Origin: an uncultured Bacteroidales bacterium
GTDB taxonomy: Bacteria > Bacteroidota > Bacteroidia > Bacteroidales > Paludibacteraceae
Assembly: GCA_900542355.1 (NCBI GenBank)
Contig: UQNE01000002.1
Location: 56,957-120,956 of the forward strand
Direction of reading: 5' to 3'
Length of the DNA stretch: 64,000 nucleotides
A program made the translations under genes and the position numbers. Under the pieces are notes generated by a model. That model made no database searches. It worked only from the letters and a program-made list of their open reading frames with translations, and was not told the origin of the DNA. How positions within the stretch are numbered: position 1 is the first letter of the stretch; each line of letters opens with the position of its first letter. Shown here piece after piece: positions 3,536 through 61,760 of this stretch.

Positions 3536-3568
3536 TTAGGTCTCGACAAGGTCTCGACAAAATCCGCT
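3536..3568 (+). repeat. truncated copy (A) of the TTAGGTCTCGAcaAGGTCTCGA intergenic repeat family, flanked by 7-bp direct repeats ATTCGAT (3530-3536 and 3569-3575)
   Basis: TTAGGTCTCGACAAGGTCTCGACAAAATCCGCT. Matches copies at 12437, 60351 and 23499(rc) apart from loss of the third GGTyTCGA unit. Confidence 0.7.
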
Positions 3569-3619: not shown

Positions 3620-4618
3620 ATGACCTACTTGGTACTGCGTTTTTCGACACTCGGTAATGTAGCGATGACGGTTCCCGTGATTGCGTCGGTGAGTGCACTG
3701 CAACCCGATGACGAGTTTATCGTGGTGGCAAAGAAACGCTTGAGTGCGATGTACTACGGTTTGCCTAATGTGCGTTTCCACGAGGCGGAACTGACTGATT
3801 TAGGCAGTTTGATACGCTTGTATCGGGAACTAAAGCAATACTCGATTGACGCTGTGATTGACTTGCAAAATGTAGCACGGACACGGTTGTTGCGAGCATT
3901 GTTCCGCCTCGGAGGGAAACGAACCTACCGCATTCGCTATGGCAGAGTGAGCAAATATCTGATCACGCTATGCGGATTTAACTTCGGGAAGGCATTGCCA
4001 ACCGAGTTTGAGCGATATGCCGATACTTTTCGTCGTGCCGGACTGCGATGCGACACGCGTTTTGAAGCGTTGGCAGTAAATGAAGAAGCGCAACGGGCTG
4101 TGTATGAGCGGTTTGGCGAGAAACAAGGGCGATGGATCGGCATTGCGCCTTTTGCGAAATCGAAATCGAATATGCTGTCCTATCGCACCACCAAAGAGGT
4201 GATTGAGCGTTTGTCGGCAGAGCCGAATACGCGGCTTTTTCTCTTTGGCGCGGGCAAGATAGAATGTGAGATGCTGCGCCAGTGGGCAAGCGTTTTTCCG
4301 CACACCGACAGCATAGCGGGAGAACTGCCATTGGAGCAGGAATTGGAACTGATGCGTCGATTGGACGGGATGGTTTGTATGGATTCTGCCAATCAGCATT
4401 TGAGTTCATTGGTGGGGTTGCGTGCCATAAGCGTATGGTGCGGCACCCATCCGAAATTGGGCTTTGCGGGTTGGAAGCAACGCCCCGAAGACATTATCCA
4501 ACTAAATCAGATAGCGTGCAGGCCGTGTACTTGCCATGGAATCAACTATTGCAGGTATCACAACTTTGCATGCAAAAACATAAGTGCAGAACAAATTATA
4601 AAACGAATATATGAGTAA
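3620..4618 (+). CDS. glycosyltransferase family 9 (ADP-heptose:LPS heptosyltransferase-like)
   Basis: 332 aa with GT9-like architecture: GNVAMTVPVI N-terminus, a central GxAPFAKS motif, and C-terminal MDSANQHLSSLVG as in RfaF/RfaC-type enzymes. Confidence 0.65.
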   Translation: MTYLVLRFSTLGNVAMTVPVIASVSALQPDDEFIVVAKKRLSAMYYGLPNVRFHEAELTDLGSLIRLYRELKQYSIDAVIDLQNVARTRLLRALFRLGGKRTYRIRYGRVSKYLITLCGFNFGKALPTEFERYADTFRRAGLRCDTRFEALAVNEEAQRAVYERFGEKQGRWIGIAPFAKSKSNMLSYRTTKEVIERLSAEPNTRLFLFGAGKIECEMLRQWASVFPHTDSIAGELPLEQELELMRRLDGMVCMDSANQHLSSLVGLRAISVWCGTHPKLGFAGWKQRPEDIIQLNQIACRPCTCHGINYCRYHNFACKNISAEQIIKRIYE

Positions 4619-5383: not shown

Positions 5384-6223
5384 ATGAAGAAGATGACAGG
5401 ATTAGGGCGCGGCCTGGACGCGCTGATAGACACCACGCATGTGGATACCAATGGCGGAAGCAGTATCAGCGAGGTGGAACTGAGCAAGATAGTAGCCAAC
5501 CCCGATCAGCCACGCCGCAATTTTGATGAGGACGCCCTGGCAGAGTTGGCCGATTCGATACGCGAACATGGTGTAATCTCGCCTATCACGCTGCGAAAGA
5601 ACGATGACGGCACCTATATGATTATTGCCGGTGAGCGTCGTTATCGTGCGTCGAAGATGGCGGGATTGAACTCGATTCCTGCCTATATCCGCACTGCGAA
5701 AGACGAGCAGGTGATGGAGTGGGCATTAATAGAGAATATTCAGCGCGAGGACCTGGACGCGATAGAGATAGCCCTTGCTTATCAGCGACTTATGGACGAG
5801 TATCAACTGACGCAGGAGCGTATGTCGGAGCGTGTGGGGAAGAAACGCGCCACGGTAGCCAACTATTTGCGTCTGCTGAAACTGCCTGCCGAGATTCAGA
5901 TGGGTATCAAAGAGAAGAAGATTGATATGGGACACGCTCGCGCCATTCTCGGTTCGCCGTCGGCAGAGCAGCAGTTGGATCTGTATCAGCGCATTTTGAA
6001 AGAGGGGTTGTCGGTTCATAAAGTGGAGCAGTTGGTTAGCGAAAACAAACCAAAATCCACTAAACCCAAAGCAGAAAAGAAAGAGGATAACCCACAATAT
6101 CAGCAACTTAGCAAGCAGTTGGAAGAGGCTATCGGCAAGAAAGTGAAGATCGCTGACGGCAAATTGACTATATTCTTCAACGGCGAGGAAGAGTTGTATT
6201 CGATACTTGAGCGTCTGCATTGA
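5384..6223 (+). CDS. parB: chromosome partitioning protein ParB/Spo0J
   Basis: GLGRGLDALI, RRNFDEDALAELADSIREHGVISPITLR, and the GERRYRA ParB box motifs. Confidence 0.95.
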   Translation: MKKMTGLGRGLDALIDTTHVDTNGGSSISEVELSKIVANPDQPRRNFDEDALAELADSIREHGVISPITLRKNDDGTYMIIAGERRYRASKMAGLNSIPAYIRTAKDEQVMEWALIENIQREDLDAIEIALAYQRLMDEYQLTQERMSERVGKKRATVANYLRLLKLPAEIQMGIKEKKIDMGHARAILGSPSAEQQLDLYQRILKEGLSVHKVEQLVSENKPKSTKPKAEKKEDNPQYQQLSKQLEEAIGKKVKIADGKLTIFFNGEEELYSILERLH

Positions 6224-6864
6224 AGCGTTTTCTGAGCATATTGTTGCTATGTATTCCGTGCCTGCTGATGGCGCAGAACGATGTGATTTACCATACACCC
6301 GACACGACCTCGGCGGACGATGGGCAGTATCGGTACTACATCGATTTGTCGCGCCGCCCCGATGCGCTAAAAGCAGTGTGGCTTGGGGCAATCTTGCCCG
6401 GGGCAGGGCAAATCTACAATGGCAGTTATTGGAAACTACCTATCGTATATGGAGGATTGATGGGTTGCGGATATGCGATTTCGCTGAACCAATCACGCTA
6501 CAACAGTTACAAGACCGCTTATCGGGACTTGTACAACGATGCACAAGCAGGGCTTGTGAACAACGACCCGACGAAATCGTACAACGCGATTTTGCCCGAG
6601 GGGTACGACATCGACCGCTTGGGCGGAGTGAGCCGATACACATCGACTCTGCAGAACTGGCAGAGCAACTACCGCCGCTACCGTGATTGGAGCATAGTAG
6701 CCACCATATTGGTGTATGCACTCTCGCTGGTGGATGCGTATGTGGATGCACAACTATTTGATTTTGATATTTCACCCGACCTGACACTGAATGTGGAGCC
6801 GCAGATCTACTACGATTTGCAGCAACAGCGTTCTGCGGAGGTAAAATTAGCGATTACATTTTGA
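6220..6864 (+). CDS. DUF5683-like membrane protein, the conserved Bacteroidales gene after parB
   Basis: Signal-like N-terminus, then the GAILPGAGQIYNGSYWKLPIVYGGLMG motif. Overlaps parB by 4 nt (ATGA). Position-conserved downstream of parAB in Bacteroidales, from memory. Confidence 0.6.
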   Translation: MKRFLSILLLCIPCLLMAQNDVIYHTPDTTSADDGQYRYYIDLSRRPDALKAVWLGAILPGAGQIYNGSYWKLPIVYGGLMGCGYAISLNQSRYNSYKTAYRDLYNDAQAGLVNNDPTKSYNAILPEGYDIDRLGGVSRYTSTLQNWQSNYRRYRDWSIVATILVYALSLVDAYVDAQLFDFDISPDLTLNVEPQIYYDLQQQRSAEVKLAITF

Positions 6865-12436: not shown

Positions 12437-12514
12437 TTAGGTCTCGACAAGGTCTCGATGAGGTTTCGACAAAAACGGCTCAAAGTCGGCTTGACAAAAA
12501 GACAGCAAAAATAG
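12437..12514 (+). repeat. full-length copy (B) of the TTAGGTCTCGAcaAGGTCTCGA repeat family
   Basis: TTAGGTCTCGACAAGGTCTCGATGAGGTTTCGACAAAAACGGCTCAAAGTCGGCTTGACAAAAAGACAGC. About 75 % identical to copy C at 60351. Confidence 0.75.
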
Positions 12515-23435: not shown

Positions 23436-23499
23436 CTCAATCGCAGCCGTTTCAGTCCTGTTTTTGTCGAACTTTTGTCGAGACCTAATCGAGACCTAA
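23436..23499 (-). repeat. copy (D) of the TTAGGTCTCGAttAGGTCTCGA repeat family, inside the dcw cluster between ftsW and murG
   Basis: Reverse complement reads TTAGGTCTCGATTAGGTCTCGACAAAAGTTCGACAAAAACAGGACTGAAACGGCTGCG. Same orientation as dcw transcription. Confidence 0.7.
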
Positions 23500-33370: not shown

Positions 33371-33589
33371 TTTGTATCCTTGTCAGTTTTAATTTCGCTG
33401 CAAAGGTACAAAATTTATTTGATATACCCCACTTTTCCCCACAAAAAAAATATCCATAGGATTTTCAACAGGTTATCAACAAAATGCGATAGATATAGTT
33501 TTCTGATAATCAAATAGTTGTATAGGTTGTAAACAAAATGGTGGAAAGTGGGGCAAAATAACGGTGATGATACTTCATCGCGCAATACG

Positions 33590-33719
33590 ATGCATAATTA
33601 CGAATGCATGATTCAATGCATAATGCATAATTAAGAATGCATAATGTATGCTATTTTCTCCGTTTTGGGGTCTTTGATCCTTCGGAGGTGGTTCGAACAA
33701 TGCATAGTGATGAATGCAT
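33590..33719. repeat. array of seven ATGCAT hexamers within 130 bp, five in the extended form (G/C)AATGCATAATG, 220-350 bp upstream of mraZ
   Basis: ATGCAT at 33590, 33604, 33616, 33623, 33637, 33700 and 33714. Confidence 0.7.
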
Positions 33720-33821
33720 AATGCGTAGTGGAATGCTCGATATTTGCTCGATATAGGTTCGGCGTAGTATGCTACTGATAATGATTAGATAATGACTTGT
33801 ATATGACTCTTGTATGACTCG

Positions 33822-33935
33822 GGGGTTAGATGGTATAGGGAGACTATATACCCTAGATGCTATAGGAAATCTAGGGAATATAGGGGAACTAGGGGATCTA
33901 TATGATGCTCTAGATACCAGGGGAAATAGGTATTC
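33822..33935 (+). repeat. purine-rich element with 10-bp-periodic CTAG/ATAG spacing (copy E1)
   Basis: gggggttagatggtatagggagactatataccctagatgctataggaaatctagggaatataggggaactaggggatctatatgatgctctagatacc. Confidence 0.7.
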
Positions 33936-34002
33936 TTGTATATCTTGTGTTCTGTTGATTGGTGGTAAAAAATACAAAAAATAGAGAAAAATGTCGGTGA
34001 TA

Positions 34003-34034
34003 TTTGCACAGTTCAAAAAAAAGCAGTACTTTTG
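34003..34034 (+). promoter_or_regulatory. Bacteroidetes sigma-A promoter (TTTG-N20-TActTTTG) for tRNA-Gln
   Basis: caaaaaaaagcagtacttttgcagtcgctttt. Nearly identical to 61184-61214. Confidence 0.55.
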
Positions 34035-34091: not shown

Positions 34092-34163
34092 TGTCCAATG
34101 GTATAAAGGCTATTACGTCAGATTTTGGTTCTGAAAATCCTGGTTCGATTCCGGGTTGGACAA
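34092..34163 (+). tRNA. tRNA-Gln (anticodon TTG)
   Basis: Manual fold: 7-bp acceptor stem tgtccaa/ttggaca with U1-A72 (typical of bacterial tRNA-Gln); anticodon stem tcaga/tctga; loop ttTTGgt; T arm cctggTTCGATTccggg. No encoded CCA. Terminator hairpin follows. Confidence 0.8.
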
Positions 34164-34170
34164 CTAAGGA

Positions 34171-34941: not shown

Positions 34942-35002
34942 TCCGCACCACGGAACTATCTGACAAAGAGTGGAGAAGCAGCGTGCTTTTCCGCTCTTTT
35001 TG

Positions 35003-35110
35003 GTAGATAGGGGGGGAGAAGGACTAGGGAAACTAGGAAATCTAGAGGATCTATGTAATCTAGAATACCTAGGAGATATAGAAGAGCTAGGGAATATAGA
35101 TAACATAGTG
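35003..35110 (+). repeat. purine-rich 10-bp-periodic CTAG element (copy E2) between rplY and pth
   Basis: gatagggggggagaaggactagggaaactaggaaatctagaggatctatgtaatctagaatacctaggagatatagaagagctagggaatatagataacatagtg. Confidence 0.7.
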
Positions 35111-35138
35111 TCTGACATTTCTAAAAGAATCTTTTGTT

Positions 35139-38146: not shown

Positions 38147-38603
38147 AAAGGAAAACATTGCCGAATATATCCTCTACTTATGGCAGATAGAGGACTACCT
38201 GCGGGCTTTCCCTGCACAGGCGGACGCTACGACCGAGTTGCACGACATCTGCGAGATGATGCACCGCGAGGGTGTGGCAGAGAGCGGACATATCCAATTG
38301 GCTAAGAACGCCCTTGCCGAGATGGAAGAACTGCACCTGCTCTTGGCAGACAAAGAGGCGTCGTATCGTGCGGCGGTGCTGCAACTCACACCTGCTTTGG
38401 CACTCTTTAAGGCAAAGACAGACCGCCCCGCGATGTCGGATGTAGAGGCATGCTTGACGCTACTGTATCAGATTATGTTGCTCCACTTGCAGCACCACCC
38501 GGTGTCCGGCGAGACCGAGGCGGTACAGCAACAAGCCACCTCGCTGCTCCGATACCTCAGTCGCACCTATCGCGACAACAAAGACCTTGAGGACAATGCA
38601 TAA
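38124..38603 (+). CDS. conserved hypothetical protein, likely the DUF family found beside nth in Bacteroidales
   Basis: 159-aa alpha-helical protein. Overlaps the hslR-like gene by 23 nt. Confidence 0.5.
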   Translation: MTMKMKNKKENIAEYILYLWQIEDYLRAFPAQADATTELHDICEMMHREGVAESGHIQLAKNALAEMEELHLLLADKEASYRAAVLQLTPALALFKAKTDRPAMSDVEACLTLLYQIMLLHLQHHPVSGETEAVQQQATSLLRYLSRTYRDNKDLEDNA

Positions 38604-38625
38604 TGATGAATGCATAATGCATAAT
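38595..38625. repeat. three tandem AATGCATAATG decamers starting at the stop codon of the preceding gene, 36 bp upstream of nth
   Basis: gacAATGCATAATGatgAATGCATAATGCATAATGg. Confidence 0.7.
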
Positions 38626-38660
38626 GGATTGGTCCATTAATCGTTAACAGAGAACGAAAG

Positions 38661-60244: not shown

Positions 60245-60350
60245 GCAGGGAATACTTAATTGATTTAGATAGAAGGAAAATGACATTTTGTTTACTTTTC
60301 TGCCGAAAAACGAACAAAATGATTGTTTGGGTGCTAAGTCTTAGGTCTCG

Positions 60351-60414
60351 ACAAGGTCTCGACGAGAGTCCGACAAAGTTGGCTCAAAGTCGGGATAACA
60401 AAAAGATAGGAAAA
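60351..60414 (+). repeat. full-length copy (C) of the TTAGGTCTCGAcaAGGTCTCGA repeat family
   Basis: TTAGGTCTCGACAAGGTCTCGACGAGAGTCCGACAAAGTTGGCTCAAAGTCGGGATAACAAAAAGATAGG. Confidence 0.75.
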
Positions 60415-61183: not shown

Positions 61184-61214
61184 TTTGCTATATCAAAAAA
61201 AAGCAGTAATTTTG
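61184..61214 (+). promoter_or_regulatory. Bacteroidetes sigma-A promoter (TTTG-N19-TAatTTTG) for rpmH
   Basis: agttttgctatatcaaaaaaaagcagtaattttgcagtcgctttt. Confidence 0.55.
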
Positions 61215-61498: not shown

Positions 61499-61530
61499 TT
61501 AGTTCGGCTAATTAAGCACATACCAATACA

Positions 61531-61567
61531 GGGAAAAGAGACCGTGTCTCCTTTCCCTTGTTTTGTA
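61531..61567 (+). terminator. intrinsic terminator after rpmH (12-bp stem gggaaaagagac/gtctcctttccc with one mismatch, 3-nt loop, T-rich tail)
   Basis: Read directly. Confidence 0.6.
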
Positions 61568-61574
61568 ACTTGAT

Positions 61575-61740
61575 AGAGGGAAGTGGAATAACTAGGAATA
61601 TCTAGAAGATCTAGGAGGCTAAGAGGTCTAGAAGATATAGAATAAATAGAGAATCTAGGGTGTATAGAATATCTGGAATGCCTAGGGAACTTAGATAGTC
61701 CGGGATGACTTAGAGCCTATAAGATTTAGAAAATCCAAAG
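61575..61740 (+). repeat. purine-rich 10-bp-periodic CTAG element (copy E3, longest) between rpmH and rbfA
   Basis: gatagagggaagtggaataactaggaatatctagaagatctaggaggctaagaggtctagaagatatagaataaatagagaatctagggtgtatagaatatctggaatgcctagggaacttagatag... Confidence 0.7.
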
Positions 61741-61760
61741 AAATAACAAAATAATATCGT

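Follow-up and report, generated by a model that had tools for sequence, protein, structure and literature searches.

CTAG-anchored 9-bp tandem repeat arrays in intergenic spacers of gut and rumen Bacteroidales

Three purine-rich arrays lie in intergenic spacers of the window, the whole 64-kb stretch of Bacteroidales DNA that we analyzed. Element 1 occupies the divergent spacer between mraZ and tRNA-Gln, element 2 the spacer between rplY and pth, and element 3, the array on which the original prediction was centred, the spacer between rpmH and rbfA. Pfam confirms L25 (rplY), peptidyl-tRNA hydrolase (pth) and MraZ near elements 1 and 2, and precomputed Pfam matches confirm L34 (rpmH), RbfA and RecO near element 3. 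The features are as follows.

33408, minus strand: mraZ promoter, from the consensus scan.
33822 to 33935, plus strand: element 1, the most degenerate array, with 4 exact CTAG plus ATAG and CTAT units.
34003 to 34034, plus strand: canonical Bacteroidetes promoter of tRNA-Gln (TTTG ... TACTTTTG, match at 34027), downstream of element 1.
34092 to 34164: tRNA-Gln, whose Rfam match passes the gathering threshold.
34964 to 35002, plus strand: intrinsic terminator hairpin of rplY, a 17-bp stem and then a U run, directly upstream of element 2.
35003 to 35110, plus strand: element 2, about 11 units in strict 9-bp register, with 6 exact CTAG.
35111 to 35138, plus strand: short tail from element 2 to the pth ATG, near-invariant among strains.
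61184 to 61214, plus strand: canonical promoter of rpmH (TTTG ... TAATTTTG, match at 61207), from the consensus scan.
61530 to 61566, plus strand: intrinsic terminator hairpin of rpmH and then UUGUUUUG, directly upstream of element 3.
61575 to 61740, plus strand: element 3, about 17 units, with 6 exact CTAG.
61721 to 61760, plus strand: A-rich tail from element 3 to the rbfA ATG, with 0 substitutions in 39 aligned bases between strains.

We searched for promoters with our own scan for the Bacteroidetes consensus, TTTG ... TAnnTTTG. On the plus strand, the scan placed a single canonical promoter, that of rpmH, ahead of element 3 and rbfA; the rplY–pth and rpmH–rbfA intervals yielded none. A sigma-70 scan returned chance-level matches, and that consensus is not applicable to Bacteroidetes. 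Element 2 ends 28 nt before the ATG of pth and element 3 ends 20–40 nt before the ATG of rbfA. Because both arrays lie between a strong intrinsic terminator and a start codon, with no canonical promoter in the interval, they are probably part of the transcribed leader of a terminator read-through RNA, and we infer from this layout that pth and rbfA are supplied by read-through. Element 1 is placed differently: within its divergent spacer it sits about 90–205 bp ahead of the tRNA-Gln promoter. The original prediction had put every array directly after a terminator, which is correct for elements 2 and 3 and incorrect for element 1. As a separate observation, the tRNA-Gln (34003–34034) and rpmH (61184–61214) promoters are near-identical (TTTGC..TCAAAAAAAAGCAGTAnTTTTG) and may represent a common strong-promoter architecture for translation genes.

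The arrays repeat every 9 bp. The pooled autocorrelation of TAG has its maxima at lags 9, 18, 27 and 36 (counts of 18, 14, 13 and 12) versus a count of 1 at lag 10, and Tandem Repeats Finder assigns periods of 9 and 18. The pattern TAG-N6-TAG-N6-TAG has 15 matches compared to 0.35 in dinucleotide-preserving shuffles, and all 15 fall within the three elements; therefore, the window contains no further copies. The 10-bp version of the pattern has 0 matches in the 64-kb window. Exact CTAGs are separated, start to start, by 18, 18 and 21 bp in element 1, by 9, 18 or 27 bp in element 2, and by 10, 9, 17, 27 and 27 bp in element 3, where a few 8- and 10-bp slips occur. The repeat unit is (C/A)TAG followed by five mostly purine bases, with a consensus of CTAGGRAAT in the window and CTAGAAAAT in relatives; the non-exact units carry ATAG, TTAG or CTAT. 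By our own count, N-TAG variants outnumber CTA-N variants in the window by 15 to 6. Modest folds can form on either strand through CUAG:CUAG pairing (z = −2.8 for elements 1 and 2).

CTAG is very scarce in the window. There are 27 copies, whereas base composition predicts 249 and a Markov estimate (CTA × TAG / TA) predicts 151. Sixteen of the 27 are inside the three elements, which make up only about 0.6% of the window (binomial P of about 1e-28 by our own arithmetic), and outside the arrays the ratio of observed to Markov-expected CTAG is 0.07. Avoidance is also extreme in 306 kb of relatives (L130–L209), where the same ratio is 0.17. The plus strand, which is the coding side, is 63%, 71% and 67% A+G in elements 1, 2 and 3, respectively. 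Three purine-rich arrays of one family, with the purine-rich strand on the coding side, are thus present at the positions originally proposed. Other details of that description need correction: the dozen CTAGs, taken per element, are overstated, as the exact copies number 4, 6 and 6, and the supposed GATAG(R)GGG head is merely the degenerate initial units of each array. We conclude that the three elements are copies of one non-coding family of heterogeneous 9-bp tandem repeats.

The 9-bp period bears directly on the physical role first suggested for the arrays, in which CTAG motifs phased at one helical turn would produce curvature or bind a protein on one face of the DNA, specifically in translation operons. 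The motifs are periodic, and the window's copies do flank tRNA-Gln/rplY, pth, rpmH and rbfA. However, a 9-bp unit rotates by about −51 degrees per step (9 × 34.3 degrees, our own arithmetic), returning to the same face every 7 units. Successive sites therefore spiral around the helix, and the one-face and planar-curvature ideas fall. With no match to a 10-bp pattern and a link to translation genes that is not general (below), we give this explanation very little credence.

The elements do not correspond to a known RNA family, a mobile element or a protein-coding sequence. No credible Rfam match overlapped them at E <= 1, and only tRNA-Gln passed the gathering and E-value thresholds. We rejected a MITE or other mobile element, as no bracketing terminal inverted repeats were found around the elements and the array edges fade into degenerate units. 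It has practically no likelihood, in our assessment, that the arrays encode small Leu-Gly/Glu-Asn tripeptide-repeat proteins in the frame CTA-GNN-NNN. ORFs of 56 and 69 codons do cross elements 1 and 2, and a gene caller predicts the 56-aa ORF in several strains. However, a repeat of this kind leaves two of its three frames open by construction, element 3 lacks any ORF, the ORF at element 1 goes uncalled in 3 of 10 strains, and the indels between strains (17, 10, 16 and 1 bp) are not multiples of three.

We scanned one genome per species from 185,579 species with a query of four consecutive CTAGRR-N3 units. At least 119 loci carry arrays, compared to about 4 expected by chance (our own arithmetic). 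Among the matches listed, about 85 of 119 (roughly 70%, counted from record titles) are from Bacteroidota, with about 41 from Prevotella or Prevotellaceae and about 44 from other Bacteroidota; about 14 are from Kiritimatiellae, Lentisphaeria or Verrucomicrobia, mostly of rumen or gut. Named isolates among these matches include Prevotella merdae, P. falsenii and Prevotellamassilia timonensis. The CTAG 9-mer family is therefore widespread in gut and rumen Bacteroidales.

The arrays in Bacteroidota are heterogeneous in a structured way. An average array has 79% distinct units, which vary around a consensus of CTAG-A-A-A-A-T. In 159 units unforced by the search pattern, anchor positions 1–4 are conserved at 87, 83, 86 and 89% (1.15–1.40 bits) and positions 5–9 carry 0.16–0.70 bits. 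A T tends to precede the anchor and an A to follow it, which extends the core to TCTAGA. The arrays are degenerate at their edges and also show higher-order periods of 18 and 27 bp. Units are shared more often between arrays of the same genome (Jaccard index of 0.17) than between genomes (0.03).

Scans of viral contigs for five consecutive CTAG units gave at least 119 matches at period 9, 45 at period 8 and 47 at period 10. Most of the period-9 viral matches are near-perfect repeats that are probably coding, and these scans are therefore no test of the period preference of Bacteroidales-type arrays. Two viral contigs of one IMG/VR sample (L274 and L285; 3300045988) each carry several heterogeneous CTAGAYGGG 9-mer arrays.

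Short tandem arrays are common in these genomes, at 19 per 100 kb in the window and 11–31 per 100 kb in relatives. Those outside the CTAG family have units mainly of 7, 8 or 11 bp, represent dozens of unrelated motifs and show no excess of palindromic cores over shuffles; we consequently rejected a general class of palindrome-core tandem repeats. The 9-mer tandem repeats, by comparison, are nearly all of the CTAG type.

The interval 33586–33992, upstream of the tRNA-Gln promoter, holds six different short tandem repeats with periods of 7, 11, 11, 9, 8 and 9, and intergenic AATGCAT heptamer arrays are found at 33586–33646, 33700–33735 and 38595–38626. In another Prevotellaceae genome, an AATGCAC array abuts a CTAG array (L018, ~1170–1210). 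A second family in the window is the 11-mer AGGTCTCGACA, in 2–3 tandem copies at four intergenic sites (3538–3560, 12439–12472, 23478–23499 on the minus strand, and 60343–60376). Downstream of its copies at 12439 and 60343 the same tail follows, GACAAA..GGCTCAAAGTCGG..ACAAAAAG, and the 11-bp direct-repeat spacing would suggest a binding site of the response-regulator type. Intergenic DNA in this lineage seems to grow largely through short tandem duplication.

We examined the surroundings of the arrays in other genomes, where all context figures come from our own crude ORF calls. The arrays occupy spacers that contain a gene's 3′ end, and a recurring layout is a stop codon, 0–40 nt, the array, a 10–60 nt A-rich tail and an ATG. 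Within 80 nt downstream of the 52 purine-skewed Bacteroidota arrays, an ORF starts on the purine-rich strand in 26 cases and on the opposite strand in 10. The bias toward the sense strand is therefore moderate (about 70%), with about 30% of arrays antisense. Per kb of spacer there are 1.63 arrays where the flanking genes converge, 1.10 where they are co-directional and 0.30 where they diverge, and some arrays lie upstream of a terminator instead of downstream. The genes that follow include, by Pfam, galactokinase, Der, GlnRS, PorZ, RsmH, NadD and ThiC, with others assigned by eye. Since these genes are diverse, the association with translation genes that was originally proposed is real locally, around the window's own arrays, and is not a property of the family.

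Two pairs of foreign loci deserve description. In two Prevotellaceae genomes of different genera, a CTAG array lies directly upstream of PorZ homologues that are 35% identical (L072, ~6693–6823; L106, ~5900–5971), and both arrays follow a similar upstream gene end. The sharing could reflect long persistence or coincidence; the chance probability is about 0.2, and we therefore do not count it as evidence. At an orthologous pair of loci from Prevotellaceae and Bacteroidaceae (L052, ~125–201; L098, ~4343–4465), TTTGAAGT octamers are followed by a CTAG array of 9 or 14 units and then by the same terminator hairpin.

Comparison of strains shows that the arrays and their flanks evolve at different rates. 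The window is identical to assembly GCA_902461235.1 over a 6.4-kb stretch around rbfA (locus L001), and its L25 protein occurs in 161 blocks of the assembly collection, some of them from assemblies of human gut metagenomes. At element 3, we compared the window with two lineages that differ from it at 5% of rbfA bases and 7–8% of recO bases. In this comparison, the flank containing the rpmH terminator has 0 substitutions in 76 positions and the 40-nt tail before the rbfA ATG has 0 in 39, versus 12% and 29% substitutions together with indels in the array. Between strains, the flanks are more conserved than synonymous sites. The arrays are reshaped as units are gained, lost and exchanged, and for this reason the unit number and the five variable bases outpace synonymous sites, whereas the anchor and its register persist. 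CTAG units at 9-bp spacing are retained in every lineage despite this turnover, and elements 1 and 2 follow the same pattern as element 3.

Nine near-identical haplotypes of element 2 differ only by a G-run and one SNP, and therefore the arrays are not fast contingency loci. We rejected a hypermutable simple-sequence contingency locus (VNTR) on three counts: 79% of the units per array are distinct, near-identical haplotypes show no change in copy number, and unit number shifts only between lineages that are 5–8% diverged. The G-run is the one with which element 2 opens, G7 in the window (35011–35017), and its length varies from G6 to G9 among otherwise near-identical strains; this variation could be homopolymer slippage or assembly noise.

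Across species, the arrays are patchy. None of 80 metagenomic relatives found via L25 carries a CTAG array in its rplY–pth spacer, even at 91–92% L25 identity. The spacer in these relatives ranges from 2 to about 300 nt, and where it has a terminator it often carries unrelated repeats, such as AATTTACA, TTAATTGT, CATAATT and GGTTCAGAAAG (repeats are present in L131, L130, L137, L163, L164 and L166). One relative, at 63% L25 identity, has TTAG/ATAG 9-mers in this spacer, as recorded for L166. The L164 spacer has AACTGAG 8-mers, similar to the published TAACTGA heptamer. The arrays at these loci are therefore species-level acquisitions, and any function they have is dispensable or generic. A specific tie to translation genes is not supported by this comparison of orthologous spacers.

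Our search of the literature, which left most subscription journals outside its reach, found no description of CTAG 9-mer arrays. The nearest published repeats are the TAACTGA heptamers, and the cyanobacterial STRR heptamers are short head-to-tail repeats of the same kind. The TAACTGA direct repeats are found in Beggiatoaceae, Cyanobacteria and some Bacteroidetes, are intergenic and mostly forward, and lie a few to tens of nt before start codons; their copy number is variable, their phylogeny patchy, and their proposed post-transcriptional role unproven (PMC4679880). The CTAG arrays resemble both heptamer families in being short head-to-tail repeats that are intergenic, mostly forward and shortly upstream of start codons, and they too vary in copy number and have a patchy distribution. 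However, their unit is 9 bp rather than 7, only a 4-bp palindromic anchor is fixed while five bases vary, and their hosts are gut and rumen Bacteroidales together with some PVC-group bacteria. In unit structure, we consequently do not place them in the heptamer class.

Arrays of UAG triplets have precedents as targets of RNA-binding proteins. The TRAP operator of Bacillus has 11 G/UAG triplets with 2–3 nt spacers, and HutP recognizes UAG triplets with 4-nt spacers. As proposed for the CTAG arrays, periodic UAG triplets lie in a leader between a terminator and a gene, where in the TRAP and HutP systems they are read by a multivalent RNA-binding protein. Unlike these operators, the CTAG arrays have 6-nt spacers (period 9) in place of 2–4 nt, 10–20 variable copies, no alternative antiterminator/terminator structure and a different host taxon, and we rejected membership of the TRAP/HutP class on spacing. 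No gene of TRAP/HutP type was seen among the small ORFs scanned in the 64-kb window. The one concrete lead toward a binding protein is RbpB, an RRM-1 protein of B. thetaiotaomicron that bound an RNA probe with three copies of GUAGGAUA at a Kd of 5.1 µM and left a C/U-rich probe unbound (10.1101/2021.04.27.441718). RRM-1 proteins form an abundant family that, within the gut, is found largely in Bacteroidetes (10.1101/2021.04.27.441718); later work described them as binding RNA globally and as resembling cold-shock proteins (PMC11697453, PMC13370968). The RbpB motif contains only G, U and A, includes UAGGA and is bound as a tandem triple repeat; its resemblance to the CTAG unit is one of sequence only, and it differs in that it comes from synthetic probes of micromolar affinity, with natural repeat targets unreported (10.1101/2021.04.27.441718). 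CLIP of RbpB in B. thetaiotaomicron pointed instead to the FopS/GibS small RNAs. No RRM-1 gene was found among the small ORFs of the 64-kb window.

At the DNA level, ribbon-helix-helix proteins bind arrays of short operators: the 8-bp metboxes of MetJ, the 7-bp heptads of omega and the 11-bp iterons of ParR. These sites consist of many short tandem units, some with palindromic cores, that are bound cooperatively as a protein spiral, and the CTAG arrays likewise have tandem short units with a CTAG/TCTAGA core every 9 bp. They differ in location, as the known arrays are in promoters or plasmid centromeres and the CTAG arrays are at gene 3′ ends or between cistrons; the units of the known arrays are also well conserved and few per genome. 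An example of a bacterial VNTR or simple-sequence contingency locus is given by the AGAT 5′-UTR repeats of UspA2 (cited in PMC4679880). Such VNTRs lie in 5′ leaders, as elements 2 and 3 probably do, and resemble the CTAG arrays in a copy number that varies between strains, whereas CTAG units are heterogeneous, near-identical haplotypes keep their copy number, and the neighboring genes are housekeeping rather than surface or virulence genes. Short intergenic tandem repeats are already a known kind of element; what is different in the CTAG 9-mer family is a fixed anchor combined with variable filler.

Our preferred reading, possible but well short of probable, is that the transcribed array would serve as a multivalent platform of single-stranded (C/A)UAG-purine repeats, on which an abundant protein specific for single-stranded RNA would bind. 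The RRM-1 Rbp family of Bacteroidetes would be the strongest candidate for such a reader, with ribosomal protein S1 or a cold-shock protein as alternatives. Binding would set the stability or translation of a weakly transcribed downstream cistron, and element 1, upstream of a promoter, would be a decaying copy. Initiation in Bacteroidetes relies on mRNA structure and upstream nucleotides, not on Shine-Dalgarno pairing (PMC6847099); a protein-coated leader some 25–35 nt before the ATG could plausibly matter in such a system.

Much of the data is consistent with a platform in the RNA: the period of 9, the concentration of CTAG and the constraint on the anchor in genomes where CTAG stands at 7–17% of expectation; the recurrence at no fewer than 119 loci, the 26 versus 10 sense-strand bias, the stop-array-tail-ATG layouts and the spacer densities; the confirmed terminators, the lack of canonical promoters before pth and rbfA and the conserved flanks around a variable array; and the predominance of CTAG among 9-mers when other tandem repeats share no motif. 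Against it, array density is highest in convergent spacers, which lead to no start codon; the preferred orientation accounts for only about 70% of arrays; element 1 sits ahead of a promoter; and the rplY–pth array is missing in the sister species. The arrays are also not unstructured; their modest folding through CUAG:CUAG pairing weakens an unstructured leader as the sole rationale. The RbpB motif, moreover, was derived by MEME from synthetic probes and has weak specificity.

The arrays could instead be neutral or selfish satellite DNA, in which self-propagating CTAG 9-mers are tolerated where constraint is lowest, an account we regard as possible yet doubtful, and nearly as likely as the platform. 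Short tandem duplication would be a main route of intergenic growth in these genomes, CTAG would persist through the turnover process rather than through a function (slippage aided by microhomology or hairpins, and unequal exchange among units sharing the palindromic anchor), and the orientation bias would be a compatibility filter, as U-rich or structured leaders would be harmful. The abundance of short tandem arrays with many unrelated motifs, the patchwork of six different repeats at 33586–33992 and the other repeats that fill the same rplY–pth spacer in sister species all agree with such an origin. So do the degenerate array edges with their 18- and 27-bp higher-order periods, the higher sharing of units within a genome, the diversity of downstream genes, the potential of CUAG:CUAG pairing to form slipped hairpins, and a density order (convergent > co-directional > divergent) that fits permissiveness. 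Yet neutral growth offers no reason for one anchor and one 9-bp period to reappear across more than 80 Bacteroidota species when other tandem repeats show neither a shared motif nor a palindrome excess, or for CTAG to survive within the arrays of genomes that otherwise purge it; and near-identical haplotypes with unchanged copy number indicate that slippage is slow. Alternatively, a dimeric protein of ribbon-helix-helix or similar type, or a methyltransferase, would read (T)CTAG(A) every 9 bp in the DNA, and the protein would polymerize along the spacer as a spiral. Downstream of genes, such an array would insulate, shape the nucleoid or DNA topology, or carry an epigenetic mark. The tandem operator arrays of MetJ, omega and ParR are precedents, the palindromic anchor is symmetrically conserved and favors TCTAGA, about 30% of arrays are oppositely oriented, element 1 is probably untranscribed, and genome-wide CTAG avoidance fits CTAG as a signal. 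We nevertheless consider recognition in the DNA rather unlikely. It names no candidate protein; the strand asymmetry of the five variable bases, the sense bias and the 15 to 6 excess of N-TAG variants would be unexpected for a symmetric site; and the depletion of arrays in divergent promoter spacers disfavors an operator role. Both rivals nonetheless stay close to the preferred reading.

A broader reading spans both levels: CTAG-N5 arrays would serve gut and rumen Bacteroidales, along with some PVC-group bacteria, as a dedicated cis-signal that a putative sequence-specific protein reads. Periodic (C/A)UAG-purine in RNA, or TCTAGA in DNA, would be recognized after gene ends and would tune read-through, stability or translation of the next cistron, and the extreme avoidance of CTAG would partly result from keeping the signal unambiguous. 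We think it improbable that the arrays are dedicated to this degree. Recognition in the transcript, neutral propagation and recognition in the DNA all leave unexplained why the period of 9 and the CTAG anchor hold across species.

To our knowledge, Bacteroidales do without Shine-Dalgarno-led initiation, Hfq, ProQ and CsrA, and we know of little that explains how they tune expression within operons or past leaky terminators. A repeat family that keeps a 4-base anchor in CTAG-purging genomes, just before start codons, would give a concrete and testable way into post-transcriptional control, or into a new DNA-binding system, among dominant gut bacteria. The arrays could also act as a strain-typing marker between lineages that are 5–8% diverged. 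If they are neutral, they would illustrate clearly how the intergenic DNA of bacteria can undergo satellite-like concerted evolution.
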